Shown one piece after another: positions 1,795-49,368 of a stretch of 64,000 nt of DNA. Numbering within the stretch: the first letter of the stretch is position 1; each line of letters starts with the position of its first letter. The notes under the pieces were generated by a model. It was not told the origin of the DNA. It made no database searches and saw nothing but the letters and a program-made list of their open reading frames with translations. Both the position numbers and the translations under genes were made by a program. Origin of the DNA: Minisyncoccota bacterium (GTDB taxonomy: Bacteria > Patescibacteriota > Minisyncoccia > Phycocordibacterales > UBA9973); contig JBAYVZ010000001.1 of the NCBI GenBank assembly GCA_041674285.1, forward strand, positions 85,732 to 149,731, in the 5' to 3' direction.

Positions 1795-4146
1795 ATGGAC
1801 AAAAAATCACTAACAGAACAAGATATTTGCTCAAAATATATACTACCGGCCATTACAGATAGTGGTTGGGATTTAAAGCATCAAATCCGTGAACAGGTTA
1901 CTTTTACTGCCGGCAAGATTACCGTACGTGGCAAGACTGTTTCTCGTGGAGATCAAAAGCGTGCTGATATTATCTTGTATTACAAAAATGATTTACCGAT
2001 AGCTATCATTGAAGCTAAAGACAATAATCATGGAGTAGGTGCTGGTATGGAGCAGGGTCTTGGTTATGCTGAAGCTCTGGATATTCCTTTTGTTTTTAGT
2101 TCCAATGGGGATGCTTTTATTGAACATGATCGATTTGTGGCAGAGGGGGTTAAAGAAAGAGAAATATCTTTAGATAAATTCCCGTCACCTGAGGAGTTAT
2201 TTGAAAGATATAAAACAGCTAAAGGGATAGATAATAATATCGAAAATATAATTTCTGAAGAATATTTTCAGGAGCTTAAAGGTAAATCTCCTAGATATTT
2301 TCAAAGAGTAGCAATAAATAGAACAGTAGAAGCTGTAGCAAAAGCCCAAAAGCGTATTCTTTTGGTGATGGCTACGGGTACAGGTAAGACGTATACTGCA
2401 TTTCAGATTATTTGGCGTTTATGGAAGTCAAAATCTAAAAAAAGAATATTATTTCTTGTTGATAGAAATATATTAGCTGACCAGACTATGATCAATGATT
2501 TCAAGCATTTTGGAGACAAAATGACGAAAATAGAAAACCGAAATGTTGATAAATCTTACGAAGTTTATCTTGCTCTATATCAGGGGATTACTGGAAACGA
2601 AGAGGAGAAGAATATTTTTAAACAATTTTCTCCAGACTTTTTTGATTTGATCATTGTGGACGAGTGTCACCGTGGTAGTGCAAAAGACGACTCCGCTTGG
2701 CGTGAAGTTTTGGATTATTATTCAAATGCTACACAGATCGGCCTTACCGCTACACCAAAAGAAACAAAAGATATCTCTACTCAGTCATATTTTGGAGAGC
2801 CTATTTATACTTATTCATTAAAACAGGGTATAGATGATGGTTTTCTTGCTCCGTACAAGGTTATTCGAATTATTATCGATCGTGATGTGGAGGGGTATAG
2901 ACCAGAGGCCGGCAAGACAGATAAATACGGCAATGAGATTCCTGATCGTGTTTATAATACAAAAGATTTTGATCGTGATTTAGTTATAGACGAGCGCACA
3001 GAAATTGTAGCTAGAAAAATTACTGAATATATGAAAGAAACAGATCGTATGCAAAAAACGATTGTTTTCTGTGTGGATATAGATCATGCTGTTCGCATGC
3101 GTCAAGCATTAGCAAATGAAAATGCTGATATGGTTGCCGAAAATCGCAAATATGTTGTACGTATTACCGGAGACAATGAAGAGGGTAAGAGAGAATTGGA
3201 TAATTTTATTGACCCAGAAAATCCCTATCCGGTTATAGCAGTCACTTCAAAACTCATGACTACAGGAGTGGACGCTCAAACTTGTAGATTGATCGTTCTT
3301 GATCAAAATATTGGATCTATGACTGAATTCAAGCAAATAATCGGTCGTGGTACTCGTGTCCGAGAGGATTACAATAAAATGTATTTTACTATTATGGATT
3401 TCAGGAGTGTCACAGAGCTTTTTGCTGACCCAGATTTTGATGGTGACCCTGTTGTCGTGTATGAACCAAAAGGTGATGACCCTCTGAGTCCACCTGAAGA
3501 TATTATTGATCCAGTAGAACCAGAACCTGTTATATATCAAAAACCAAAGATAAACATCGGTGGTATTACTATTGGAGAGCCTCGTACAAAATTTTATGTA
3601 AATGGTATCGATGTAAAAGTTATAAATGAGCGTGTTCAATATATAGGCGAAGATGGTAAATTAATCACTGAATCCTTGAAAGATTATTCAAAGAAAAATA
3701 TTTTAAATGAGTATTCATCTCTGGATTCTTTTTTGAATGCCTGGAATCAGAGTGACAAAAAAGAAATAATAATAGAAGAATTAAAAAAGCAGGGTGTATT
3801 TTTTGAAGAATTAGAAAAAGAAGTTGGTAAAAATCTGGATCCATTTGATCTTGTTTGTCACATAGCTTATGGCAAGAAGCCTCTTACTCGCAAAGAGCGC
3901 GCAGAGAATGTCAGAAGGAATGATTACTTTGCAAAATACGAGGGCAAAGCCCGAGAGGTGATAGATGCTCTTTTGGAAAAATATGCAGATACAGGTATTA
4001 CCGCTATAGATGATATTGGTGATTTGCAGGTATCTCCTTTTACAAATTTTGGTACACCAGTGGAGATCGTAAACGAAATTTTCGGGGGGAGAGAAAAATA
4101 TTTAGAAGTTATTAGAAATATACAAAATAGCATTTATTTATGTTAG
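1795..4146 (+). CDS. hsdR: type I restriction enzyme R subunit (HsdR)
   Basis: HsdR_N-like N-terminus, SF2 helicase motifs MATGTGKT (Walker A), DECHR (motif II), TATP, QIIGRGTR; first gene of the R-M operon. Confidence 0.9.
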   Translation: MDKKSLTEQDICSKYILPAITDSGWDLKHQIREQVTFTAGKITVRGKTVSRGDQKRADIILYYKNDLPIAIIEAKDNNHGVGAGMEQGLGYAEALDIPFVFSSNGDAFIEHDRFVAEGVKEREISLDKFPSPEELFERYKTAKGIDNNIENIISEEYFQELKGKSPRYFQRVAINRTVEAVAKAQKRILLVMATGTGKTYTAFQIIWRLWKSKSKKRILFLVDRNILADQTMINDFKHFGDKMTKIENRNVDKSYEVYLALYQGITGNEEEKNIFKQFSPDFFDLIIVDECHRGSAKDDSAWREVLDYYSNATQIGLTATPKETKDISTQSYFGEPIYTYSLKQGIDDGFLAPYKVIRIIIDRDVEGYRPEAGKTDKYGNEIPDRVYNTKDFDRDLVIDERTEIVARKITEYMKETDRMQKTIVFCVDIDHAVRMRQALANENADMVAENRKYVVRITGDNEEGKRELDNFIDPENPYPVIAVTSKLMTTGVDAQTCRLIVLDQNIGSMTEFKQIIGRGTRVREDYNKMYFTIMDFRSVTELFADPDFDGDPVVVYEPKGDDPLSPPEDIIDPVEPEPVIYQKPKINIGGITIGEPRTKFYVNGIDVKVINERVQYIGEDGKLITESLKDYSKKNILNEYSSLDSFLNAWNQSDKKEIIIEELKKQGVFFEELEKEVGKNLDPFDLVCHIAYGKKPLTRKERAENVRRNDYFAKYEGKAREVIDALLEKYADTGITAIDDIGDLQVSPFTNFGTPVEIVNEIFGGREKYLEVIRNIQNSIYLC

Positions 4147-4158
4147 TTTGTATGTATA

Positions 4159-4187
4159 TTGACAATACAAACGAAAAGGTATAAAAT
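4159..4187 (+). promoter_or_regulatory. sigma70-like promoter for fic (TTGACA-17nt-TAAAAT) embedded in an 8-bp inverted repeat GTTTGTAT/ATACAAAC
   Basis: TTGACA at 4159-4164 and TAAAAT at 4182-4187 with 17-nt spacer; inverted repeat 4147-4154/4165-4172 brackets the -35. Confidence 0.45.
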
Positions 4188-4202
4188 GTTAGTATCTATC
4201 GT

Positions 4203-5375
4203 ATGAATACAAACAATAAAAAAACATATTCAATAGGAACTTATAGACCAGAAAAGGATGGGCTTAAAACATTCTTGCCAAATGCTTTTCCTGGTGATTT
4301 TGAGTTTTCTGGGAAGCTTTATAAGAAACAAAGTGAAGCATCTCATTATTTAGGTAAACTTGATGGTATTACAAAACTTTTACCCGATAAAGACTTTTTC
4401 TTGTTAATGTTTATTAAGAAAGACGCTACTTATTCTAGCCAGATCGAAGGTACTCAAGCGACATTTCAGGATGCTGTAGCCGTAGGTGCTTCTTCAGAGT
4501 ATGGAGCTGTTGATGGTAGTGATGTTCATGATATTGTTTATTACATCAAAGCTGTTAATTATGCTATGAAAAGAATTGTAGATTTTCCTCTTTCATTACG
4601 ACTAGTTAGAGAAATTCATGAAAAATTAATGAAAGGTGCTCGCTCAACACAACATGCTTATCCTGGAGAGTTTAGAAATTCTCAGAATTGGATCGGCGCA
4701 CGACTTCCCAAGGATGCAAGTTTTATCCCACCAAATGTTTCTGATATGAAAAATGCATTAGATGAGCTTGAAAAATTTATTCATGCGAAAGATGATTTTC
4801 CAGCACTCATAAAAGCAGGTCTTTTACATGCTCAATTTGAAACCATACATCCATTTACTGATGGTAATGGTCGTACTGGTAGAATGTTGATAACTCTTTA
4901 TTTGCATAAAGCAGGACTTTTGGAATTACCTGTTTTATATCTTTCAAGTTACTTTAAAAAATATCAAAAACTTTATTATTCAAAATTGGCAAGTTATCAT
5001 GATGAAGAGAGTGATATTGAGGGTTGGCTTAATTTCTTTTTAGATGGGGTTGTAGATACAGCACAGTCTTCAATAGAAACATGCGAAAAGATTATTGCAC
5101 TTAGAGAAAAGGATCATGCAAAAATTCAGACACTTGGAGTCAAAACAGCATCTAAAACATTTGAGGTTTTGCAACAGTTATACAAGCAACCAATAGTGGG
5201 TATCGCGGACATAGAAAAATGGACAAATTATACACAGCCAGGTGCCTACAAGATGATTCAGAGATTGATTGATTTAGATATTTTAGAACCATTGGGGGAT
5301 GTAAAGTATGGCCAAAAATATGTTTATACAAAGTATTACAAGATATTCGATTCTGATTTTATAAATAAAAAATAA
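4203..5375 (+). CDS. fic: Fic/DOC family protein (AMPylase-type; N-terminal Fic/DUF4172-like domain, C-terminal wHTH)
   Basis: Canonical Fic motif HPFTDGNGRTGR; upstream inhibitory-helix-like motif SSQIEGT ((S/T)xxxE(G/N)); located between hsdR and hsdM. Confidence 0.9.
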   Translation: MNTNNKKTYSIGTYRPEKDGLKTFLPNAFPGDFEFSGKLYKKQSEASHYLGKLDGITKLLPDKDFFLLMFIKKDATYSSQIEGTQATFQDAVAVGASSEYGAVDGSDVHDIVYYIKAVNYAMKRIVDFPLSLRLVREIHEKLMKGARSTQHAYPGEFRNSQNWIGARLPKDASFIPPNVSDMKNALDELEKFIHAKDDFPALIKAGLLHAQFETIHPFTDGNGRTGRMLITLYLHKAGLLELPVLYLSSYFKKYQKLYYSKLASYHDEESDIEGWLNFFLDGVVDTAQSSIETCEKIIALREKDHAKIQTLGVKTASKTFEVLQQLYKQPIVGIADIEKWTNYTQPGAYKMIQRLIDLDILEPLGDVKYGQKYVYTKYYKIFDSDFINKK

Positions 5376-5376
5376 C

Positions 5377-6807
5377 ATGGCCATACAATCTATAATAAAA
5401 AATATTCAAGACATCATGCGCAAAGACGCGGGCGTAGATGGTGATGCACAACGCCTTTCTCAGCTCGTATGGCTTTTGTTCTTAAAAATTTTCGACGACA
5501 AGGAAAAGGAATACGAGCTCGTTGATACAAAATACATTTCTCCTATTCCAGAGGATCTTCGCTGGCGTAATTGGGCGAGTAATGCCGAAGGCATCACTGG
5601 CGATGAGATGCTAGATTTCATAAACAATAAACTTTTCAAGCAACTCAAGGATCTAAAATTCAATAGCAGTGATGATCCTCGAGGTATGATAGTCAAAGAG
5701 GTTTTTGAGGATACTTACAACTATATGAAGTCTGGCACCTTGATTCGTCAGGTAGTAAATAAAATAAATGAGATAGATTTCAATAGCAAGGATGACCGCC
5801 ATCATTTCAATGAGATATACGAACATTTATTAAAGCAGCTTCAAAATGCGGGCAACGCTGGTGAATATTACACTCCTCGTCCGCTGACAAATTTTATTGT
5901 AAATACCCTTGATCCAAAATTAGGTGAAGATATTCTTGATCCCGCATGTGGTACTGGCGGATTTCTAATCAGTGCACTAGAATACATTCGTAATAGTGGA
6001 GAAATCAAAACTAAAAAAGACGAGACTAAACTTCAAAACCAAATTCATGGTGTAGAACTCAAACCACTCCCACACTTACTCGCTATTACAAATATGATTC
6101 TTCATGGAGTAGAGATTCCACAGCAGATAAAGCGTGGGGACATGCTCTCGCATCCACTTCGTGAATATGGTCCGAAAGATCGCGTGGATATTATAATCGC
6201 AAATCCTCCCTTCGGTGGTAGCGTAAAAGATGGCACTGAGGCAAACTTCCCAGCAGATTTTCGCACAAAGGAAACAGCTGATCTTTTTCTTGTATTATTT
6301 ATGGCATTATTGAAGCCTGGTGGCCGAGTCGGTATTGTCCTCCCAGACGGCTCACTCTTTGGTGAAGGGGTAAAATCTCGCATTAAAGAAAAGCTCCTTG
6401 AAGACTGCAACCTTCACACTATCATCCGCCTACCAGCAGGAGTATTCCAACCATATGCAGGGGTGAATACAAATCTAGTATTCTTTACAAAGGGTCAGCC
6501 TACAAAGGATGTCTGGTATTACCAGATGCCTCTACCAGCAGGAATGAAGCAGTATACAAAGAATCGTGGCATCACAGATGCAGAATTTGAAACTGTGGCA
6601 AAATGGTTCAAGAATAAAAAGGCAGGTGACAATGCATGGAAAGTATCTATCGCTGACATAAAAGCCCGCAATTTTAATCTTGATTTCAAGAACCCAAAGG
6701 GTGGGGAAGTTGAGGAAGAATTGAGTTCAAAGGAGTTGATTAAGAGAATTCAATCTGTCGAAGGTCAAATTACAAATACTTTTAGTGATATTTTGAAGAA
6801 TATATGA
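5377..6807 (+). CDS. hsdM: type I restriction-modification N6-adenine DNA methyltransferase (HsdM)
   Basis: HsdM_N-like N-terminus, SAM motif DPACGTGGFL, catalytic NPPFGG; stop overlaps the next ORF start (ATGA). Confidence 0.9.
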   Translation: MAIQSIIKNIQDIMRKDAGVDGDAQRLSQLVWLLFLKIFDDKEKEYELVDTKYISPIPEDLRWRNWASNAEGITGDEMLDFINNKLFKQLKDLKFNSSDDPRGMIVKEVFEDTYNYMKSGTLIRQVVNKINEIDFNSKDDRHHFNEIYEHLLKQLQNAGNAGEYYTPRPLTNFIVNTLDPKLGEDILDPACGTGGFLISALEYIRNSGEIKTKKDETKLQNQIHGVELKPLPHLLAITNMILHGVEIPQQIKRGDMLSHPLREYGPKDRVDIIIANPPFGGSVKDGTEANFPADFRTKETADLFLVLFMALLKPGGRVGIVLPDGSLFGEGVKSRIKEKLLEDCNLHTIIRLPAGVFQPYAGVNTNLVFFTKGQPTKDVWYYQMPLPAGMKQYTKNRGITDAEFETVAKWFKNKKAGDNAWKVSIADIKARNFNLDFKNPKGGEVEEELSSKELIKRIQSVEGQITNTFSDILKNI

Positions 6808-8189
6808 AACTGCATTCAATTCAAATAAAAAATTATAGAAGCATAGAAGATATTTCTTTTGAGATTATTCAATTAGATGATAAAAGTTTTACATATGGTC
6901 TGATTGGAGTTAATGAGGCTGGTAAATCGAGCATACTTAAAGCATTGTCATTAAAAGATGGATTAGTTCAGACTCAACAAAAAGATTTTCGTGATAAATC
7001 AAAGCCTGTTGAGGTCATTTATTCTTATGAACTTACTATTGAAGAGAGTAATGAATGTAAATCTATTTTGGAGCCAATACCTGATAATTTAATTTTTACT
7101 GATATTTCACTGAAAGCATATTTTTTAATCCAAAATCCAACACAAATAAATCTAGAATTTGATTTATTAAATATAACAAACGAGGAAAAAGCAAAAATCC
7201 AAGAAAAATTACAACAGTTGTTCTTATCTAAAATTCATAAGTCTGTTTTTTGGACAGCGGAAGATAAGTATTTAATTTCACAGCCAATAGATCTTAACGC
7301 TTTTGCTAATTCACCTGAAAATGTTTCGATTCCACTTAAAAATTGTTTTTATCTTGCTGGTATTTTAAATATCCAAGATAGAATAAGTTCTGTTGGTGTT
7401 GATTCTACTGAAATTGAGCAGCTTCAAACTGAACTCGGGGAAAAAGTAACAGATCATATTAAAACTGTTTGGCCAAATCATCCTATAGATATAACTTTTT
7501 TAATAAATAATGGCCAAATTAATTTTCATATAAAAGATGAGGGTGTTTCTGGTAAGGCAAAAACAGCAGATCAGAGAAGTGATGGTTTTAAGCAATTCGT
7601 ATCTTTTCTTCTTACTGTTTCTGCTCAAAATAAAAATGATGAACTTGCTAACTCAATTTTATTGCTTGATGAGCCTGAAACTCATCTACACCCACAAGCA
7701 CAAGAATATTTACTAGGAGAATTCATAAAGATTTCTTTAAATAATAGAAATAATATTGTATTTTTTGCTACCCATTCAAATTACATGATTGATAAGGGAG
7801 ATTTAAGTAGAAACTATAGGATTAAAAAAGAAAGTGGTAAGACAGAAAAAAATAAATTTGATAAAAAAAATTCCACATATGCGAGTGTAACTTATGAAGT
7901 TTTTGACATTCCAAGCACTGATTATCATAATGAGATTTATGGAAAATTGCATGATAGATATCAAGATGCAGATATTTCTGATGAAAAAAGATCTGGAGTG
8001 TTAAATTTTGATACTGGATTTTTGTATTCCGAAAAAGGGATTAAAAAAGATAAACCATGGAAGGGAAATATTAACCAAGCAACCCTACCTACATATATTA
8101 GGAATTGCATTCACCATCCTGATAATGGAGATAAATATAAAGATGTGGAATTAAGAAAATCTATAGAGTTGCTACGTTCTTATTTATGA
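6804..8189 (+). CDS. ABC/AAA_15-type ATPase with C-terminal HEPN-like RNxxxH motif (PrrC/RloC-like candidate anticodon nuclease, or RloA-like restriction-linked ATPase)
   Basis: Walker A GVNEAGKSS; ABC-like D/H-loop LLLDEPETHLHPQAQ; C-terminal ~150-aa extension containing RNCIHH (R-N-x3-H) about 30 aa from the C-terminus; translationally coupled between hsdM and hsdS. Confidence 0.7.
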   Translation: MKLHSIQIKNYRSIEDISFEIIQLDDKSFTYGLIGVNEAGKSSILKALSLKDGLVQTQQKDFRDKSKPVEVIYSYELTIEESNECKSILEPIPDNLIFTDISLKAYFLIQNPTQINLEFDLLNITNEEKAKIQEKLQQLFLSKIHKSVFWTAEDKYLISQPIDLNAFANSPENVSIPLKNCFYLAGILNIQDRISSVGVDSTEIEQLQTELGEKVTDHIKTVWPNHPIDITFLINNGQINFHIKDEGVSGKAKTADQRSDGFKQFVSFLLTVSAQNKNDELANSILLLDEPETHLHPQAQEYLLGEFIKISLNNRNNIVFFATHSNYMIDKGDLSRNYRIKKESGKTEKNKFDKKNSTYASVTYEVFDIPSTDYHNEIYGKLHDRYQDADISDEKRSGVLNFDTGFLYSEKGIKKDKPWKGNINQATLPTYIRNCIHHPDNGDKYKDVELRKSIELLRSYL

Positions 8190-8599
8190 AAAATAAACAC
8201 CAAACCTCAAAAATAAATTTAATCAAAGATTTTAAAATTGCTTTAAAGGATATGGAGCCATATGTAAAAAATCCAGACTATCTTATTAAAGGTAGAGAGT
8301 TTTCTAATTTTTCGTTAAGACCTAGAGAGGCTTGGGCGAATTGGTTGCTCTGTGTTGTTTTGAGAAAACTACATGGTGATAATATAACTTTTGCAGAGGA
8401 TCCCAATGGTGATGGTTTTATTGTTGATAAAAATACAGAAGAAATGATACAAACAGAGCATGTTTCAGCGCTGGAAAACCCTCTTAATCCTCAGCCAAAA
8501 GGAGAAAATAGAATTATAGATGCAATCAATTTAAAAATTATAAAAGGACCCGCATACGCTACTGGTAAATGGTTGGTGGTGTTTTTTGATGGGGCTTAA
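8186..8599 (+). CDS. hypothetical protein (restriction-linked ORF); the frame stays open for 69 further codons after an in-frame TAA (to 8806)
   Basis: 137-aa ORF overlapping the ATPase stop. After TAA at 8597-8599 the same frame has no stop until 8807-8809 despite AT-rich sequence. Confidence 0.4.
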   Translation: MKNKHQTSKINLIKDFKIALKDMEPYVKNPDYLIKGREFSNFSLRPREAWANWLLCVVLRKLHGDNITFAEDPNGDGFIVDKNTEEMIQTEHVSALENPLNPQPKGENRIIDAINLKIIKGPAYATGKWLVVFFDGA

Positions 8600-8810
8600 G
8601 AATTTTTCAGAAATAAAATAAGAGAAAACATAAAAGGTAGACATAATTTTGATGCTGTTTATTGCGTTGGTCTATTGACTGTGGATATAAATAGATACTC
8701 TTATATAGTTTCAGAATTTAAGGACTCTAGTGGAGAAAAATCTATATCTTTTAAAATAGATATTAATAATGATTTTACAGATTGGAACATTAATCAAATT
8801 CTTCAATAAT

Positions 8811-9938
8811 ATGAAAAATAATTGGCAAACAAAAAAAGTCGGGGATTGTTTAGAAAAAATACCTAGTTTGGGTAGTGTATTTAGTAGTCAAAATTTACAA
8901 ATTGGAAATTTTCCAATTATAGATCAGGGTCAAGATTTCATCACTGGGTATACAAATGATAAATCTTTAGTTTTTTCAGATTGTTTACCAGTGATTATTT
9001 TTGGAGACCACACACGAGCTTTGAAATTTATTGATTTTCCTTTTGCTGTTGGGGCAGATGGAACTAAAATACTAAAACCAAAAGCTGAATTTGATCCAAG
9101 ATTTTTCTATTACATGTTGTTATCTTTGGATTTAGGAAGTCGTGGATATGCTCGTCATTTTAAATTGCTAAAAGAATCAGAAATTCCACTCCCACCTCTA
9201 AAAACCCAAAAGGAAATTGTTGCGAAGTTGGGTGAGAAGATGGGGAAGATTAAAGAAGCGAAAAAATTACGGGAAGTGGCTATTGCTGACACTGAAAAAA
9301 TCCTCTCCCAAACCCTCCGCGAAATTTTTGAAGAAGGAAAAGAGAAAGGGTGGGAGGAAGTTTTCTTGAGAGATGTTTCTGAGGTTGTTGGTGGTGGAAC
9401 TCCAAGTACTTCAGTAAAGGGTTATTGGGACCAAACTTACGCATGGGCAACACCTAAAGACTTAGGAAGACTAAATTCGGTTTATATAAATAAGACAGAC
9501 AAAACAATATCAGAATTAGGTTTAAAAAATTCTTCAGCAAAACTTCTGCCTATTGGGTCAATTGTTTTTTCGTCACGTGCGCCAATCGGGTATTTGGCTA
9601 TTAATACTGTTCCTATGGCTACTAATCAAGGTTGTAGAAATTTTGTGTGTTCAGATAAAATAATTAATAAATTTCTCTATTACTCTTTAGTTTTTAATAG
9701 AGAATATATTAAGTCCCTAGGCTCAGGGTCAACATTTGCTGAAATATCAGGTTCAAAGCTAAAAGAAATTATAATATTTATTCCATCTCTTTCTGAACAA
9801 AAGAAAATTGTTACTAGGCTTGATGCACTTTCGGAAAAGATTCGCAAGGCGGTTGAGCTTCAAAAATCCCAGCTAGAGGATTTGAAAAAACTAGAAAAAG
9901 CCTATTTACGAGAAGCATTTAATGGGGAATTAATTTAA
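8811..9938 (+). CDS. hsdS: type I restriction-modification specificity subunit (HsdS), two target-recognition domains
   Basis: Central and C-terminal conserved HsdS helices (LPPLKTQKEIVAKLGEKMGKIKEAKKLRE... and IPSLSEQKKIVTRLDALSEKIRKAVELQKSQLEDLKK); an alternative upstream start at 8769 is possible. Confidence 0.85.
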   Translation: MKNNWQTKKVGDCLEKIPSLGSVFSSQNLQIGNFPIIDQGQDFITGYTNDKSLVFSDCLPVIIFGDHTRALKFIDFPFAVGADGTKILKPKAEFDPRFFYYMLLSLDLGSRGYARHFKLLKESEIPLPPLKTQKEIVAKLGEKMGKIKEAKKLREVAIADTEKILSQTLREIFEEGKEKGWEEVFLRDVSEVVGGGTPSTSVKGYWDQTYAWATPKDLGRLNSVYINKTDKTISELGLKNSSAKLLPIGSIVFSSRAPIGYLAINTVPMATNQGCRNFVCSDKIINKFLYYSLVFNREYIKSLGSGSTFAEISGSKLKEIIIFIPSLSEQKKIVTRLDALSEKIRKAVELQKSQLEDLKKLEKAYLREAFNGELI

Positions 9939-9946
9939 AATAATTT

Positions 9947-10378
9947 ATGTCAAAAAATAAAATTTCAGGAGATATGGGTGAGCAGGAGATTGTAGATTTG
10001 ATCGCTTGTCCTAATTGCAAGAAGAAGTTGATGTTATTACCTAAAAACTACCCATTATTCGATGTGCAGTGTGAGGGGTGTAGTTTTCGTGCTCAGGTGA
10101 AGACAAACAACACAAAGCCAAAGTCTATAATCTTTGGAGCTGGCTGGGATATTATGGAAAAAGTTTTAAAATCTGGATACATGGTTCCACCGCTGATAAC
10201 AAATTTTAAGTGGAGTGATAAGGGTGTGGATCATCAAGAGATTCGATTTTATCCTTTTGTACCGAAGATAAATTTAAAGATGCATCAGCTTTCTGGGGAG
10301 GCAAGACGCGCAAATTATAAAATGTTTAATTACATAGGAATAGACAAGCTTCCTTATTTTGAATTGTTTAAAAAATAA
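9947..10378 (+). CDS. hypothetical zinc-ribbon protein, possibly restriction-endonuclease-like
   Basis: CPNC...CEGC four-Cys cluster; N-terminal GDMGEQEIVDLIA resembles the start of Mrr/PD-(D/E)xK-like domains; directly follows hsdS. Confidence 0.45.
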   Translation: MSKNKISGDMGEQEIVDLIACPNCKKKLMLLPKNYPLFDVQCEGCSFRAQVKTNNTKPKSIIFGAGWDIMEKVLKSGYMVPPLITNFKWSDKGVDHQEIRFYPFVPKINLKMHQLSGEARRANYKMFNYIGIDKLPYFELFKK

Positions 10379-18251: not shown

Positions 18252-18379
18252 ATGAGTCCCGTTAGAAGTCATACATGTTATTTTTGACTACGGGGTTTAT
18301 TTTAAAAAAGTATACATATTCGATATTATTAGTTAAATTATGTACGATAATCTAAAGATTATCTACTTCTAACGGGATG
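18252..18379 (+). promoter_or_regulatory. structured leader element copy 1 (uORF MSPVRSHTCYF + 12-bp long-range stem CCCGTTAGAAGT/ACTTCTAACGGG ending at the ppi start codon)
   Basis: Extended -10 TGATATAAT ends 7 nt before uORF ATG 18252; 5' arm 18258-18269, 3' arm 18365-18376, main ATG 18377. Confidence 0.6.
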
Positions 18380-23651: not shown

Positions 23652-23694
23652 AAAACTTACAAGCTTACGCTATCGCGCAAAGTTGTAAGTTTTT
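23652..23694. repeat. palindromic intergenic hairpin repeat, copy 1 (AAACTTACAAGCTTACGCTATCGCGCAAAGTTGTAAGTTT)
   Basis: Near-identical to copies at 27587, 28198, 40300; flanked by A-run/T-run (bidirectional-terminator-like). Confidence 0.85.
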
Positions 23695-23737
23695 TTGTTT
23701 GCACTCATTAATTTTTTATTTTATAATTTATTCATAA

Positions 23738-27148: not shown

Positions 27149-27589
27149 ATGAATTGGCAAAAAATTACAATTTGGACTTTAATTCTATCTGTTATTATTT
27201 ATCTGCTTTTTTATTACATTGCTAGTCATACAGATAAATTTTGTTATGAAGATCACTGGGACTGTTATTTAAAATTAAGATTTGCGATATCTTTTTCCTT
27301 TATAAATCTTTTCGAGTATATAATTCCAATCTTACTAATTGTTGCGTCTTTGCCAAGTCGCTATCAAAGAAAAATGTATATAAGTTTTATTTTTGTTTCT
27401 GTATTGGTTTTTATTTTTGTGTTTATTTTGTTGCCATATGAGTGTACTGGTTATATGTGCTTTGATAAGGCTAGTGGAGCCAAGTTTGCCCGAAATCTAT
27501 ACCCCCTAGTCCTAATCCCAATACTTGTGATCAATTTCTTCCGCTTCCGCAAACAAGACAAAAAAGCTTCAATTATTTTAAGCAAATAA
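27149..27589 (+). CDS. hypothetical polytopic membrane protein
   Basis: Four predicted hydrophobic helices; no motif. Confidence 0.45.
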   Translation: MNWQKITIWTLILSVIIYLLFYYIASHTDKFCYEDHWDCYLKLRFAISFSFINLFEYIIPILLIVASLPSRYQRKMYISFIFVSVLVFIFVFILLPYECTGYMCFDKASGAKFARNLYPLVLIPILVINFFRFRKQDKKASIILSK

Positions 27590-27628
27590 AACTTACAAAC
27601 TTACGCTATCGCGCAAAGTTGTAAGTTT
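27587..27628. repeat. palindromic intergenic hairpin repeat, copy 2
   Basis: AAAACTTACAAACTTACGCTATCGCGCAAAGTTGTAAGTTT; identical to copy 4; overlaps the stop of the upstream ORF. Confidence 0.85.
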
Positions 27629-27658
27629 CAGTGGTGTATTATTAATAATAATTAACCT

Positions 27659-28156
27659 ATGAGCATTGAAACAGAAATATTGTCCTACTTGGCAAATCAA
27701 AAAAGAGAAAAGCCACTAAAATACAAAGGTCTTAGGGTTGGCCTGTTCGGCTTGCCAGATTTTGAACATTATAAATACCAGACAATGGCTGCAAGATTAT
27801 CCGGTCTCAAAACAAAGGGGTATATAGATGAGAAAAATGGAGCATACTTTATTACAAAAAAGGGTAGAGATTTTCTTTTAAAAAGTAAATCTATCCTTCA
27901 AAAATTTTCGACAAATAAAACGAGTACAGATCCGAAGGATCTTTTGATTGTATATGACATACCCGAGGGTAATAAGAAGCAGAGAGATTGGTTTCGTCGG
28001 CAGTTGGTATCTATGCATTTTGTGATGATACAGAGGAGTGTCTGGGTAGGTCCAGCTCCATTATCCGATGAATTTCTTGCATATTTAAAATCTTTAAAAC
28101 TTAATGATAATTTTAAAACATTCAGATTAGCAAAGGGGTATGATACTCGTAAGTAA
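27659..28156 (+). CDS. winged-helix + Cas2-like (VapD/Cas2-fold) domain protein, orphan
   Basis: C-terminal half LLIVYDIPEGNKKQRDWFRRQLVSMHFVMIQRSVWVG...FKTFRL parallels the Cas2 N-terminal core (LVLV.YDI..D..RRR....L...G.R.Q.SVF). N-terminal ~75 aa is wHTH-like; no CRISPR array nearby. Confidence 0.5.
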   Translation: MSIETEILSYLANQKREKPLKYKGLRVGLFGLPDFEHYKYQTMAARLSGLKTKGYIDEKNGAYFITKKGRDFLLKSKSILQKFSTNKTSTDPKDLLIVYDIPEGNKKQRDWFRRQLVSMHFVMIQRSVWVGPAPLSDEFLAYLKSLKLNDNFKTFRLAKGYDTRK

Positions 28157-28197: not shown

Positions 28198-28242
28198 TAA
28201 ACTTACAACTTTGCGCTATCGCGCAAAGTTGTAAGTTTTTTG
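28198..28242. repeat. palindromic intergenic hairpin repeat, copy 3 (perfect palindrome AACTTACAACTTTGCGC-TAT-CGCGCAAAGTTGTAAGTT)
   Basis: Perfect 17-bp arms; followed by TTTTTTGTTTTTTT. Confidence 0.85.
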
Positions 28243-31435: not shown

Positions 31436-31561
31436 ATGAATCCCGTTAGAGATGTGTTTGTTTTATTTTTAAAGTGGGATGAATATTAAATTAAGTCGTA
31501 TTTTTTTACTAAACATTAATAAGATACGGTAATGTAAACATTACCTATCTCTAACGGGATG
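31436..31561 (+). promoter_or_regulatory. structured leader element copy 2 (uORF MNPVRDVFVLFLKWDEY + stem CCCGTTAGAGAT/ATCTCTAACGGG ending at the start codon of the downstream membrane protein)
   Basis: uORF ATG 31436; 5' arm 31442-31453; 3' arm 31547-31558; main ATG 31559. Confidence 0.6.
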
Positions 31562-34950: not shown

Positions 34951-35066
34951 AAACCGCGATCGCAATTTAAATAAAAATATTATTATAAAAATTATGCAAT
35001 ATATAAAAATTAACAATCTAATTAATCAGAATCACGACTTGATCGCGATCTGTTTCTAACGGGATG
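34937..35066 (+). promoter_or_regulatory. structured leader element copy 3 (40-codon uORF MSPVRNRDRN... + 21-bp interrupted stem CCCGTTAGAAAC-CGCGATCGC / GCGATCGCG-AGAT-GTTTCTAACGGG)
   Basis: TATAAT 34923-34928 is 8 nt upstream of uORF ATG 34937; uORF stop TAA 35057-35059 lies inside the 3' arm; main ATG 35064. Confidence 0.6.
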
Positions 35067-36371: not shown

Positions 36372-37346
36372 ATGAAAAAAATACTTGCAATATTTATATT
36401 GGTAGCAACGCTAGCACCTACGATGTCGTTTGCTGGCGGTTTTGATGAGCCACCTTTTGCAGATATATACAACCCTGATTCAAAATGCTGGAGAGGTGTG
36501 ATGCATCTAAAGGGGCCTAGCGAGCAATTGCTACGTCAAAATATGCCTGTTAAGATGCGAGAGTCCTATGCGACTGCAGTGGGTGTGGATATTTCTGCTG
36601 TACCTTCATTTGCTCCTTTTATAATTGAAACATCTAATACTTCTCTCTATGATTCTGAAAAGAAAGAATATCACTTCTATGCAGCTGCAGTGTATCCACT
36701 ACCAGGTGTAGATGATGACTGTATAAAAGCGGTCCCACCATCAAATCCAAATACTACTGTGACTACTGAGGGTAAGGACATAATAGGAAAATCTACAGTT
36801 GGCCTGGCTGCTGCTAGAGCTGCTGTGGGTGGTGCTGGGTCTATCGGTCTCGGTGGTATCGCAGGTGTTGTGGCAGGGTCAAATCCTAATCCTGATACTC
36901 CAGGGGATATAAAGGGTACTCCTTTATACTCAGGTTCAACATCTGGTAATAGTGAGATTAATTATAATCCTGGTCCGAGTGGTCTAGCTGTGGACTGTAA
37001 CCGAGGAGAACCTGTAGTTCAGTATAGTACAGGCAAAAATGGTCAGAGAATAACCGAAGTGGTATTTCAGAATAATTGTGGTTTTGATGATTTGATGACT
37101 CTAATCAACAAGATTATTAATTTTCTTTTGTTTGTCATTGCTACACCCCTAGTCGCTATCGGTGTGTGTTATGCGGGATTCCTGTATCTTACATCTGGTG
37201 GTAGCTCTGAGAAGACTGGTCAGGCAAAAAGTATACTCATGAATCTAGTTATCGGTTATATAGTCGCATTGCTAGCTTGGGTAGTAGTGAAAACGATAAT
37301 GGTATCGTTAGGGTTCAATGCTACTGGTATATTCCTAGAGATTTAA
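36372..37346 (+). CDS. secreted VirB2/TrbC-pilin-like protein with long Gly-rich N-terminal domain (paralog 1 of 5)
   Basis: Signal peptide; C-terminal two-TM core PLVAIGVCYAGFLYLTSGGSSEKTGQAKSILMNLVIGYIVALLAWVVVK. Confidence 0.5.
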   Translation: MKKILAIFILVATLAPTMSFAGGFDEPPFADIYNPDSKCWRGVMHLKGPSEQLLRQNMPVKMRESYATAVGVDISAVPSFAPFIIETSNTSLYDSEKKEYHFYAAAVYPLPGVDDDCIKAVPPSNPNTTVTTEGKDIIGKSTVGLAAARAAVGGAGSIGLGGIAGVVAGSNPNPDTPGDIKGTPLYSGSTSGNSEINYNPGPSGLAVDCNRGEPVVQYSTGKNGQRITEVVFQNNCGFDDLMTLINKIINFLLFVIATPLVAIGVCYAGFLYLTSGGSSEKTGQAKSILMNLVIGYIVALLAWVVVKTIMVSLGFNATGIFLEI

Positions 37347-37383
37347 TGTTGTGTTTAATTATAATTAATTTTAAAATAATAAG

Positions 37384-37788
37384 ATGAATAAAATTACGTT
37401 TTTCATGTTACGAAATAAAAAGATTTTGACTGTCGCGTATCTCCTTGTTTTAATGATTTTGCCTTTTGCTTTCTCTCATGCAGTTGATCCTGCTGGTGTG
37501 AATCTGGATGTGAGGATAAAGAACCCTCTGGATAGTAGTATAAATACACTCCCAAAGTTCATAGAAGAGGCTTTGAAAATTGTACTGCAGATCGGTGTGC
37601 CGGTGGTGACATTGGCTATCATATACAGTGGTTTTCTTTTTGTAATGGCAAGAGGGAATAGTGAAAAGCTAGGCGAGGCCAAGAATACACTGATGTACAC
37701 ACTCATAGGAGCGGCATTGCTACTAGGATCATGGGTCATAGCGCAGGCTATACAAGGTACAATATCAGACATTAAAAGCACAACATAA
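37384..37788 (+). CDS. VirB2/TrbC-pilin-like small two-TM protein (paralog 2)
   Basis: Signal peptide; core VPVVTLAIIYSGFLFVMARGNSEKLGEAKNTLMYTLIGAALLLGSWVIAQAI. Confidence 0.5.
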   Translation: MNKITFFMLRNKKILTVAYLLVLMILPFAFSHAVDPAGVNLDVRIKNPLDSSINTLPKFIEEALKIVLQIGVPVVTLAIIYSGFLFVMARGNSEKLGEAKNTLMYTLIGAALLLGSWVIAQAIQGTISDIKSTT

Positions 37789-37803
37789 TTAAAATAAAAA
37801 TAT

Positions 37804-38103
37804 ATGCAATGTTCAAATTCAATTAAAAGTATTACAGATTTTATAAATCTAGGGAGCTGTATATTGATAAAGTCTGTGGTTCCTCTACTATTCTCTATCG
37901 CTACTGTTGGTTTTATATGGGGTATCATCCAGTATTTTATAAATCCTGATAATGAAGAGAAGCGTAGTGCAGGTAAATCTTATATGATATGGGGATTGAT
38001 TGGGTTATTCGTGATGGTATCTATCTGGGGGCTAGTAGGGGTATTCTCTTCTACTTTAGGGATCAATAATAAGCTGATCGTTCCTCAGGTATATACAAAA
38101 TAA
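37804..38103 (+). CDS. VirB2/TrbC-pilin-like small two-TM protein (paralog 3)
   Basis: Core VPLLFSIATVGFIWGIIQYFINPDNEEKRSAGKSYMIWGLIGLFVMVSIWGLVGVF. Confidence 0.5.
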   Translation: MQCSNSIKSITDFINLGSCILIKSVVPLLFSIATVGFIWGIIQYFINPDNEEKRSAGKSYMIWGLIGLFVMVSIWGLVGVFSSTLGINNKLIVPQVYTK

Positions 38104-38189
38104 AAACTTGCGTATTGTATATCATTTTGTGATATAATATAAGTATCATTATTAGGGTTTAGTCGTTAATTATTATTTAAAAATAAAAC

Positions 38190-38555
38190 ATGAAAAAAAT
38201 TATTTCATCAAGTTTGGTTTTGTCACTGCTCCCTGTTTTTGTTTCTGCTGCGTCTGTTGATGCTTATTCAATAATCGCAACAATTGGAAGACTTTTGAAT
38301 TTGGTTATCCCTGTTCTTATTGCGTTTGCTGTAGTTTACTTTATCTGGGGAGTTATCCAGTACACAATCTCAGGTAATGACGAGGCAAAAGAAAAGGCTC
38401 GTACAAGTATCATCCAAGGTCTTATCGGTCTATTCGTGATCGTAGCTTTCTGGGGTATCATCGGTATCATCACAAATACATTTGGAGTCGGATCAACTAG
38501 CTTCTCAGCTAACAACCAGCTTCCTTGTATCCCAACATCTGGAAATCCTTGCTAA
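38190..38555 (+). CDS. VirB2/TrbC-pilin-like small two-TM protein (paralog 4)
   Basis: Signal peptide; core IPVLIAFAVVYFIWGVIQYTISGNDEAKEKARTSIIQGLIGLFVIVAFWGIIGII. Confidence 0.5.
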   Translation: MKKIISSSLVLSLLPVFVSAASVDAYSIIATIGRLLNLVIPVLIAFAVVYFIWGVIQYTISGNDEAKEKARTSIIQGLIGLFVIVAFWGIIGIITNTFGVGSTSFSANNQLPCIPTSGNPC

Positions 38556-38567
38556 TAAAATAAATAT

Positions 38568-39413
38568 ATGTTTTTTGAACTTATACCAGTAGCAGAGGCG
38601 AGTGTGGCGACATTGATGCAGAGCATTAATAGGGTTATTATTAACCCTATTATAATACTGATGTTCTCTGCTGCCATAGTTTACTTTCTGTATGGCGTAG
38701 TTCAGTATCTCATTTCTCCGGATGACGAGGAGTTGAGGACTACCAGTAAATCCCATATGCTCTATGGGATTATTGGTATTTTTATCATGATGTCGGTTTT
38801 TGGTATTATGCGTGTGATTCTAAACTCACTGGGAGAGAATCATATAAAGATTACAGACACAGGAGAAGTAAATATCGCACCGAGGGACGGCTCTGGTTTT
38901 AACAATATTGGTGACTCGATAATAGATAAATCAATATTTACTCCGGTAAATAATAAATTTGAAAAACCAGTAGATACCTCTTGGGTAGATACAAACATAA
39001 CAACAAAGAAAGACCTAAATAAGACCATATATATAGATCCAAACTCTGTTTCAACAAAATCTACTTCAGGTACCTCAAGCGGTGTCGGAACAGGTGGTTC
39101 TACTGGTGGTCTGCCTGAGATCAAGAACGAGAGTAATCTGCCATCTTTAGATGCAGGTGTCGCAAAGATTGTTCAAGATATGAAAGATGCCTACAAGACA
39201 GATAGCAAGAATTACAAGGTCGTAGCTTCTGGGTTATCTAACTCTGAACAATCTGCAAAAGAACAAACTATCATGAATGCTCGTATTATGGTTGCCAAAG
39301 AAAAAAATGTGACCAATCTGGACAGTGTTTATAATGGAGGTATCCTGTATGAGAAAAATTGGAAAGTCGGTGAGACCTACCACTACTGGGTAGCTATGAG
39401 CTCTCCTAAATAA
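38568..39413 (+). CDS. VirB2/TrbC-pilin-like two-TM protein with ~190-aa C-terminal extracellular extension (paralog 5)
   Basis: Core NPIIILMFSAAIVYFLYGVVQYLISPDDEELRTTSKSHMLYGIIGIFIMMSVFGIM; Gly/Ser/Thr linker SGTSSGVGTGGSTGG. Confidence 0.5.
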   Translation: MFFELIPVAEASVATLMQSINRVIINPIIILMFSAAIVYFLYGVVQYLISPDDEELRTTSKSHMLYGIIGIFIMMSVFGIMRVILNSLGENHIKITDTGEVNIAPRDGSGFNNIGDSIIDKSIFTPVNNKFEKPVDTSWVDTNITTKKDLNKTIYIDPNSVSTKSTSGTSSGVGTGGSTGGLPEIKNESNLPSLDAGVAKIVQDMKDAYKTDSKNYKVVASGLSNSEQSAKEQTIMNARIMVAKEKNVTNLDSVYNGGILYEKNWKVGETYHYWVAMSSPK

Positions 39414-40299: not shown

Positions 40300-40344
40300 A
40301 AAACTTACAAACTTACGCTATCGCGCAAAGTTGTAAGTTTTTTT
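40300..40344. repeat. palindromic intergenic hairpin repeat, copy 4
   Basis: AAAACTTACAAACTTACGCTATCGCGCAAAGTTGTAAGTTTTTTTG; between convergent genes. Confidence 0.85.
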
Positions 40345-41782: not shown

Positions 41783-41861
41783 TTGCGCGGTTAGCTGTCT
41801 TGGTAGATAACAAGTAAATACATGCGCGGTTATGCTGTCTTGGTAGATAACAAGTAAATAC
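41783..41861 (+). repeat. two tandem 39/40-nt direct repeats, each recapitulating the first ~23 nt of the adjacent tRNA-Val
   Basis: GCGCGGTTAGCTGTCTTGGTAGATAACAAGTAAATACAT (41783-41821) and GCGCGGTTATGCTGTCTTGGTAGATAACAAGTAAATACAT (41822-41861), followed directly by the tRNA beginning GCGCGGTTAGCTCAGTTGGTAGAG. Confidence 0.8.
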
Positions 41862-41934
41862 ATGCGCGGTTAGCTCAGTTGGTAGAGCGCGTCATTGACG
41901 TTGACGATGTCACAGGTTCGACTCCTGTATCGCG
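41862..41934 (+). tRNA. tRNA-Val (anticodon GAC)
   Basis: GCGCGGTTAGCTCAGTTGGTAGAGCGCGTCATTGACGTTGACGATGTCACAGGTTCGACTCCTGTATCGCGCA; anticodon stem CGTCA/TGACG, loop TTGACGT; T-loop GGTTCGACTCC. Confidence 0.85.
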
Positions 41935-42084
41935 CACAAAGTAAGCGATAGCAAGTAAACTACTTTACTTGCGTACGGGAGGCGAAAAGCTTTTCCTTAT
42001 GAGTTTACGAATGGAAAAGGTGTACTGATTCTGTAAGAATCGACATTCCTGTATTGTTCACATTTATTTTTTTAAATTTATTTT

Positions 42085-49128: not shown

Positions 49129-49368
49129 CACGTACGAAATAGGAAATCTTTAGATTTCCGTATTTTAATAACCTTGTAATAGCTTCGACTCAGTATTTGC
49201 ATAATCAATTTATCGTTTAAAATTAAACAGCACATTTCGTACGTGATACATACCTACATCCTAGCATATTTTAGAGTCTTGTAATTTCCCCAAGGAGACT
49301 CCTTGGGAATATTGACACAGTTATATTTTAGTTATATTCTGGGTAAAAATGTCTAACTTTTAATTTTA

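Follow-up and report, generated by a model that had tools for sequence, protein, structure and literature searches.

What does a Cas2-like protein do when no CRISPR system accompanies it, and why should its gene lie between two copies of a palindrome? Both questions are raised by a 165-residue protein encoded in the 64,000-nucleotide stretch of DNA analysed here (referred to below as the window), which comes from an ultra-small bacterium (CPR/Nomurabacteria). The window spans positions 48998-112997 of a 200,730-nt metagenome contig in ENA (source sample ERZ27247358). The original prediction, made from the sequence alone, was that this gene could be a toxin or a regulator of a mobile cassette, flanked by hairpin repeats. 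We compared the protein and its flanking palindromes with those of its relatives, which makes a transcription factor of an undescribed type that controls its own gene the most likely reading, ahead of a CRISPR component, a toxin or a jumping gene. We refer to the protein and its family as mini-PaaX.

Domain architecture of mini-PaaX

The C-terminal half of the protein matches Cas2-type domains at the level of both profile and structure. Residues 95-158 match the Pfam family PaaX_M ("PaaX central Cas2-like domain") with 56.2 bits (E = 3.8e-15, cutoff 24) and residues 95-143 match CRISPR_Cas2 (PF09827) with 27.8 bits (E = 2.9e-6, cutoff 23.8), both scores being above the Pfam gathering thresholds. 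The same C-terminal stretch is matched by PADLOC Cas2 models. The NCBIfam equivalog model for cas2 (TIGR01573) scored 22.5 bits, below its cutoff of 24.5, and the model for PaaX (TIGR02277) scored 17 bits, far below its cutoff of 264. An AF2 model built on 37 homologues (pLDDT 76) has a ferredoxin-like beta1-alpha1-beta2-beta3-alpha2-beta4 arrangement over residues 95-156 (strands at 95-99, 122-125, 128-131 and 152-156, helices at 106-118 and 137-145), preceded in the N-terminal half by a helix-strand-helix-helix-wing arrangement. When the PDB was searched with Foldseek, the best whole-chain matches were PaaX (8A39) and the PaaX-like protein Rv0674 (3KFW), followed by many Cas2 chains (probability 0.98-1.0) and VapD.

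Assignment of the N-terminal half to the winged-helix class is weaker, as it combines a weak, sub-threshold match to HTH_45 (E = 2e-4, residues 40-79) with the predicted structure. This half contains a conserved YKG..GLPxF motif (residues 22-35), a putative recognition helix (residues 40-53) and a wing (residues 56-65). The protein ends at residue 165, about seven residues past the PaaX_M match, and PaaX_C is absent.

The Cas2-like domain is near-invariant in all forms of the family (consensus PKNLLxxYDIPExxKxERDWFRRxLxxFxFxMIQRSVWVGPSPLPxxFxxYxK......KTFKL). Y99-D100 and Q125-x-S127-V128-W129 are invariant in alignments of 37 and of 81 sequences, and the invariant stretch that begins at Q125 reads Q125-R-S-V-W-V-G-P. 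The YD and QRS motifs align with those of the Cas2 protein SSO8090, which places D100, at the end of beta1, at the position of the Cas2 catalytic aspartate. Neither an HUH motif nor an invariant or near-invariant histidine was found in the family alignments. A winged helix joined to a Cas2/VapD fold was what the original prediction had proposed, citing YD(I/V) and QxSV(W) as Cas2 motifs, and it agrees with the Pfam matches, the AF2 model and the Foldseek search; the profile and structure comparison with Cas2 and VapD returned CRISPR_Cas2 above threshold and structural matches to Cas2, VapD and PaaX, and the two motifs proved to align to SSO8090 and to be invariant in the family. The description of the gene as an orphan also holds for the window, in which TRF found no CRISPR-like array and the precomputed Pfam gene lists, which cover its whole length, contain no cas gene.

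Four copies of a palindrome in the window

The 40-nt palindrome occurs four times in the window, always on the + strand, where none was expected (none was found in 100 shuffles) (Table 1). It has the outer blocks CTTAC...GTAAG and a core GCGC-TATC-GCGC, the core of copies 2 and 3 being CGCTATCGCG. The right outer block of copy 2, GTAAG, covers the -35 region of the mini-PaaX gene. Copy 3 is a perfect palindrome of 18+18 bp with TATC at its centre, followed by a T-run. Copies 1, 3 and 4 have 18-bp stems with T-runs that score as intrinsic terminators, and they could double as terminators in this strain.

Table 1. Positions of the mini-PaaX gene, its domains, its promoter element and the four palindrome copies in the window.
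Feature	Position	Strand	Basis or remarks
Solo palindrome, copy 1	23653..23692	.	Precedes, by about 64 nt, the start codon (ATG at 23737) of the gene for a 1135-aa surface protein with an LCAT domain
Palindrome, copy 2 (upstream; proposed operator)	27589..27628	.	Ends 30 nt before the ATG; centre at -50
-10 box AATAAT	27647..27652	+	6 nt before the ATG; read from sequence; family consensus; few Shine-Dalgarno sequences
Mini-PaaX gene (wHTH + Cas2-like, 165 aa)	27659..28156	+	ORF, homologues, Pfam, AF2
Putative winged-helix half, residues 1-80	27659..27898	+	HTH_45, secondary structure, outer-block co-variation
Cas2-fold domain, residues 93-158	27935..28132	+	PaaX_M and CRISPR_Cas2 above threshold, Foldseek, conservation
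Palindrome, copy 3 (downstream)	28199..28238	.	Starts 43 nt after the stop codon; homologous site family-wide
Solo palindrome, copy 4	40301..40340	.	Identical to copy 2; between the convergent genes of a 202-aa ORF and a NUDIX protein

No RNA family from Rfam was found at the palindromes of the window, and tblastn detected no second paralogue there. The exact palindrome was absent from 80 related loci and from metagenome contigs. In a relative whose protein is 96% identical, the downstream palindrome is kept with one substitution in a surrounding spacer that has diverged. The palindrome sequence itself appears to be strain-specific, and only the architecture of gene and palindromes is common to relatives.

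Paralogues occupy conserved genomic slots

We found 243 full-length homologues with 55-96% identity to the 165-residue protein. Those that carry an organism name all belong to Nomurabacteria/Paceibacteria (CPR), with the exception of one labelled Desulfobacterales. With a threshold of E<=1e-10, a profile search against 1.84 billion cluster representatives yielded 768 clusters (at 50% identity); a threshold of E<=1e-3 gave 3129, and the best 150 of the 3129 are mostly 150-190 residues long, i.e., without PaaX_C. The family is large and lineage-specific. It is already present in databases but under automatic names, which include "CRISPR-associated endonuclease Cas2", "DNA-binding transcriptional regulator PaaX" (several, from JGI) and hypothetical protein. 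We found no description of the family, of its operator-bracketed organisation or of a link between Cas2 and PaaX in the searchable literature.

Sampling one genome per species gave 121 loci, 80 of which were fetched. Many genomes in this sample have two to four paralogues, which are about 60% identical or less to one another within a genome, with no near-identical copies. Across the 80 loci each paralogue occupies a slot of its own that is conserved between genomes. Where X denotes the family member, these slots include rpsL-rpsG-X-fusA (22 loci), rpsB/tsf <- X -> proS-mreB-mreC, nusA-hppA-X-tig-clpP-rny and lemA-htpX-X-gatC-gatA. Because the paralogues are so diverged and sit in conserved slots, the family appears to be old and vertically inherited, and to be under strong purifying selection.

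Neighbouring genes were named by eye from their sequences, mainly for the recurrent clusters. No partner gene or neighbour cluster is common to all contexts of the 80 loci, no cas gene or Cas1-like partner recurs among the neighbour clusters, and the identified clusters contain no recombinase gene. The identified clusters and the window's Pfam gene lists likewise contain no paa genes. The original prediction had pointed to PaaX operons as the neighbourhood that would mark a conventional regulator; the identified neighbours are instead rpsG/fusA, tig/clpP, gatCA and proS/mreB, and never paa genes.

Palindromic sites before and after the gene in relatives

A generic test based on the best palindrome score was discarded as too noisy, since AT-rich intergenic terminators score high, and a core-motif test was used instead. 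The relaxed core motif [GC]C[TGC]AT[ACG]G[GC] served as the probe for sites in the 80 loci. It was present between -62 and -20 from the ATG in 71 of 80 loci, with a modal centre at -35/-36, and in 69 of 78 loci it was found no further than 90 nt past the stop codon. The background frequency of the motif, one per 3.1 kb, corresponds to 0.014 (upstream) and 0.03 (downstream) expected occurrences per interval searched. A distant subfamily (~40% identity, from groundwater metagenomes, 80 loci) is bracketed as well, with sites upstream in 60 of 75 loci, downstream in 69 of 76 and on both sides in 54 of 71. Its sites have the core CGATCG (ACGATCGT / GCGATCGC) and outer blocks such as TGTTAACA, their modal centre is at -25, and the right outer block often overlaps TATAAT. 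In all, about 85-90% of the ~160 relatives examined have a palindromic site of their own before and after the gene, which upholds the earlier suggestion that copies 2 and 3 of the window belong to the gene they flank.

The upstream site has a fixed relation to a promoter. The palindrome is centred at -34 to -38 in most loci and is followed by an extended -10 element, TGnTATAAT, at -15 to -7, whose hexamer (-12 to -7) ends 6 nt before the ATG. Because the hexamer ends so close to the start codon, the mRNA of the gene is predicted to be leaderless, and the centre of the palindrome would fall on the -35 position. In several loci the upstream gene has canonical GC-rich terminators of its own, placed before the palindrome. 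Given these separate terminators and the fixed promoter geometry, the upstream site is therefore associated with the promoter and is not a terminator. The window is an exception to the common spacing, with its -10 box at the canonical place and its upstream palindrome centred at -50, not -36. The downstream site often starts a few bases past the stop codon and is always within the 3' UTR, and most downstream copies in the family have no T-run.

Across the window, a Shine-Dalgarno-like sequence was found for 2 of the 74 called genes, and 26 of the 74 have a -10-like hexamer whose end lies 5-8 nt upstream of the start codon, in several cases as TGATATAAT. The arrangement TGATATAAT-N6-8-ATG stands at many first genes of the window. 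This suggests that leaderless transcripts are common in the source organism.

Solo sites are rare (~8-15 in 790 kb of related loci). In the gatC slot (four loci inspected), the downstream site lies ~60 nt upstream of the expected start of the next gene, its centre being ~45-50 nt upstream of that gene's -10 box. The downstream palindrome of another family member (locus L076) lies 107 nt upstream of a homologue of the 1135-aa LCAT-domain gene that follows copy 1 in the window, a hint that this surface-protein gene may be a shared target.

A few loci have additional sites. At L027 tandem palindromes stand on either side of the gene, one pair before it (-154 and -100) and one pair behind it; L013 has several copies on one side of the gene (at +20, +205 and +390), and at L023 at least two tandem copies lie on one side of the family member. 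At L037 a solo palindrome (~1677) lies between ComEC-like and SOD-like genes, in a slot that is filled by a family member elsewhere (e.g., L020). The outer block of this solo site matches the specificity of a different paralogue from the same genome (L041), and the site is compatible with either regulation in trans or a scar of gene loss.

Two-block symmetry and co-variation of site and protein

We aligned 148 sites on their centres; the figures that follow are for the long subfamily (>=150 aa). Complementarity between the two halves is ~100% at positions +/-1, 3 and 4 and 90-98% at +/-13-17, where several pair types occur at each position, and only 48-78% at +/-5-12. Where the two halves fail to pair, G.U combinations are not favoured on either strand. 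With strict pairing confined to the core and the outer block, and with mismatches of this kind, the sites do not look like stems, and the two-block symmetry points to a symmetric protein on two DNA segments about one turn apart per half-site. The intermediate positions (+/-5-12) are 72% alike between the two flanking copies of one locus, compared to 46% between loci, which could reflect gene conversion rather than recognition.

Among the long forms, the outer block changes together with the putative recognition helix (Table 2), and paralogues of one genome have different sites. A short subfamily (~20 loci, 119-131 aa) has no helix 1, recognition helix (helix 3) or wing and keeps the YKG..GLPxF motif and the Cas2-like domain. 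Its sites are a 20-bp palindrome, ATCTACGCTATAGCGTAGAT (ATCTACGC-TATA-GCGTAGAT), that is kept between genomes; they have 10-bp arms, no symmetry past +/-10 and no outer block.

Table 2. Outer blocks of the sites and the recognition helices of the corresponding long-form proteins.
Outer block	Recognition helix
TTACC	KYQT-LANR
TAAC(C/T)	KKQS-VRNxF
TCCAT	NKES-VRNNF
ACATA	S-IKNAYYSL
GTGAC	RNS-INxAxxRL
CTCAC	KTS-FANAISRM
CTTAC (this window)	KYQT-MAAR

Read most simply, these patterns assign the outer block to the winged helix and the conserved core to the rest of the protein, which is likewise conserved. The correlation between helix and outer block is partly confounded, as a gene and its adjacent sites are inherited together. 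Paralogues that share the TTACC block differ in the core and in the intermediate positions, and these differences are not obviously explained by a near-invariant domain.

Additional observations in the window

A recurring leader stands directly before the ATG of four unrelated genes (18330-18379, 31512-31561, 35020-35066 and 49129-49180 (- strand)), which encode a PPIase, a 110-aa ORF before gyrA, a solute-binding protein and a PriA-like protein. It comprises a hairpin, G(G/A)(T/A)AAT(C/G)-TAAA-(G/C)ATT(A/T)(T/C)C, that is clear in three of the four copies and shows compensatory changes, followed by CTAyyTC(T/G)(A/T)ACG(G/T)G-ATG. As Shine-Dalgarno sequences are nearly absent from this genome, the leader may act as a signal for translation or processing. 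A 40-nt unit is repeated 2.6 times in tandem at 41784-41886, a stretch that overlaps tRNA-Val (41864-41937). The repeats are degenerate duplicates of the 5' part of tRNA-Val and its upstream sequence, and may be the footprint of a past integration or duplication at this tRNA.

A defence island (1795-10378) contains a type I restriction-modification system (HsdR, 1795-4146; HsdM, 5377-6807; HsdS, 8769-9938) interleaved with genes for a Fic protein (4203-5375) and an AAA_15/AAA_21 ATPase (6804-8189). A DpnI-like gene (9974-10378) is the last of the island, and EVE and RadC genes lie just upstream of the island. Five consecutive paralogous genes that match T4SS_pilin (36372-39413) follow the gene for the solute-binding protein.

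Discussion

PaaX is a GntR-type repressor of phenylacetate catabolism (PDB 8A39 and 3L09; Rv0674, 3KFW). At full length it has ~300 residues and comprises the Pfam families PF07848, PF20803 and PF08223, the C-terminal domain, PaaX_C, being the phenylacetyl-CoA ligand domain. Mini-PaaX has the same domain order, a winged helix followed by a Cas2-like central domain, but is half the size, has neither PaaX_C nor a paa context, and is found in CPR bacteria. It also keeps the Cas2 hallmarks YD and QxSVW, which PaaX is not known to have. The sites of the two resemble each other in geometry as well. By occluding RNA polymerase, PaaX sterically blocks transcription from its own promoter; its operator, TGATTC-N27-GAATCA, consists of two inverted 6-mers ~33 bp apart centre to centre (PMC9493321). 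The outer blocks of mini-PaaX, at +/-13-17, are ~30 bp apart and lie on the -35 region of its own promoter. Unlike the PaaX operator, the putative operator of mini-PaaX has an extra conserved central core; a second putative operator follows the stop codon (69/78 loci), and there are several paralogues per genome.

We regard it as fairly probable that mini-PaaX is a small dimeric PaaX-like autorepressor that has no ligand domain and binds the palindromes as double-stranded operators. The 165-residue protein would be a dimer with the first two domains of PaaX, the winged helix and a Cas2-fold dimerisation domain, and would bind the 36-40-bp palindromes as duplexes. The two winged helices of the dimer would read the outer blocks CTTAC...GTAAG, and the conserved remainder of the protein would presumably lie over the central core GCGC-TATC-GCGC. 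The -35 region of the promoter, which is that of the gene itself and leaderless, lies partly within the upstream site, so that the protein would be expected to repress its own transcription. The downstream site and the few solo sites may be further operators. The downstream site might loop with the upstream one, or it might insulate a small gene in dense operons as a roadblock that stops read-through in or out; downstream and solo sites might also control neighbours, such as the next gene or the large surface-protein gene.

Several observations fit this autorepressor less well. Copy 4 is a solo site between convergent genes, not at a promoter, and the upstream site of the window is centred at -50 rather than -36. 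The T-runs after copies 1, 3 and 4 suggest that these copies would also serve as intrinsic terminators. Autoregulators do not usually have a second operator right behind their stop codon, and simple autoregulation does not account for it. In addition, the conservation of the Cas2-like domain, with its kept Asp, far exceeds what dimerisation needs and hints at an additional or different activity. It is conceivable, though we consider it doubtful, that the Cas2-fold domain, in addition to the winged helix, acts directly on DNA and, as a dimer, recognises the central core or nicks it through the conserved Asp in a sequence-specific manner. The core, which resembles a restriction site (CGC-TATA-GCG; CGATCG in the distant subfamily), flanks the genes even in the short subfamily without a winged helix.

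Much of what was found could also be read as a selfish or mobile cassette, in which a Cas2-like nuclease or strand-transferase acts on palindromic cores that are the ends of the element. The same palindrome lies on both sides of the gene in two deeply diverged subfamilies, there are two to four copies per genome at different loci, and one of the solo palindromes is in a ComEC/SOD slot that a family member occupies in other genomes. D100 is invariant at the Cas2 catalytic position in an extremely conserved domain, the cores are like restriction-type palindromes (CGATCG, GCGATCGC), and the flanking copies of one locus are homogenised. The logic would be analogous to that of IS200/IS605 or REP/RAYT: as there, the gene encodes a small alpha/beta protein and is bracketed by palindromic repeats, a few of which also occur alone elsewhere. 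We nevertheless consider a mobile cassette unlikely. The paralogues are <=60% identical and syntenically fixed in conserved slots, with no sign of recent movement; solo sites are rare (~8-15 in 790 kb), not present in hundreds as for REP/RAYT, and the window has four copies in 64 kb; there is no HUH motif, catalytic Tyr helix or conserved His, and no recombinase gene among the identified neighbours; the sites are not continuous hairpins, as +/-5-12 pair in only 48-78%; and the upstream copy is in a fixed promoter geometry. A device acting on RNA, in which the palindromes would be hairpins (terminators or processing sites) that an RRM-like Cas2 domain binds or cuts to control read-through, would suit the terminator-like copies 1, 3 and 4 of the window (18-bp stems with T-runs), the position of the downstream site, always within the 3' UTR, and the description of some Cas2 and VapD entries of the PDB as RNases. 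It is quite unlikely, because the gene's own promoter is downstream of the upstream site, which leaves that site outside the mRNA, the stems are discontinuous in most loci with mismatches that show no G.U bias, most downstream copies have no T-run, the arms of the short subfamily are only 10 bp, and the outer block tracks the winged helix, a reader of double-stranded DNA. Of the earlier proposal of a toxin or a regulator of a mobile cassette, the regulator survives. The toxin, nuclease and mobile cassette found no positive support: no conserved partner gene was seen, as a toxin-antitoxin pair would have, and the paralogues are old and syntenically stable with no sign of mobility. The hairpins of the same proposal are contradicted by strict complementarity in two blocks only and by the lack of G.U bias; the sites also have a fixed place on the gene's leaderless promoter.

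Mini-PaaX has in common with Cas2 and VapD the ferredoxin-like beta-alpha-beta-beta-alpha-beta fold, an Asp that closes beta1 and the QxSV motif. The Pfam and PADLOC Cas2 matches, together with the name Cas2 that some pipelines give to homologues, would fit an orphan Cas2 that outlived its CRISPR-Cas system, or a VapD-like toxin with a cognate antitoxin. We judge this very unlikely, as the window has no cas genes and no array, the recurrent neighbours in the 80 loci are housekeeping genes with no recurrent Cas1-like partner, the TIGR01573 score is below its cutoff, and the family is vertically stable under strong purifying selection. Mini-PaaX further departs from Cas2 and VapD in that neither cas1 nor an array or antitoxin gene accompanies it, in that its Cas2 fold is joined to a winged helix, and in the cognate palindromes at its promoter. 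A conventional PaaX repressor of phenylacetate catabolism, which the PaaX_M match and the JGI naming of several homologues might suggest, has next to no probability; it is refuted by the TIGR02277 score (17 bits vs 264), by the absence of PaaX_C from a protein that ends at residue 165, and by the absence of paa genes from the identified clusters of the 80 loci and from the window. Two further identities were considered and rejected. Some outer blocks (CCTAAC...GTTAGG) recall integron attC sites, but the blocks of other subfamilies are unrelated and no recombinase is among the identified clusters; a CRISPR mini-array (repeat-gene-repeat) was dismissed because no more than two copies flank the gene, at a distance of 570 nt, and cas genes are absent.

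If the Cas2-fold domain does act on the core, this would be a new function for the Cas2 fold. The genes would then be self-bracketed units, either self-insulating or remnants of selfish elements, and the family could link Cas2/VapD nucleases to PaaX-type regulators in evolution. The tiny genomes of CPR bacteria are thought to hold very little regulation, and hardly any transcription factors of CPR/Patescibacteria are known. Mini-PaaX would bring to these organisms a readable code between protein and operator and several insulated paralogues per cell, encoded next to core operons (fusA, tig-clpP, gatCAB and proS-mreBC). The family may thus offer a natural experiment on a Cas2-fold domain outside CRISPR and on the origin of PaaX-type repressors.
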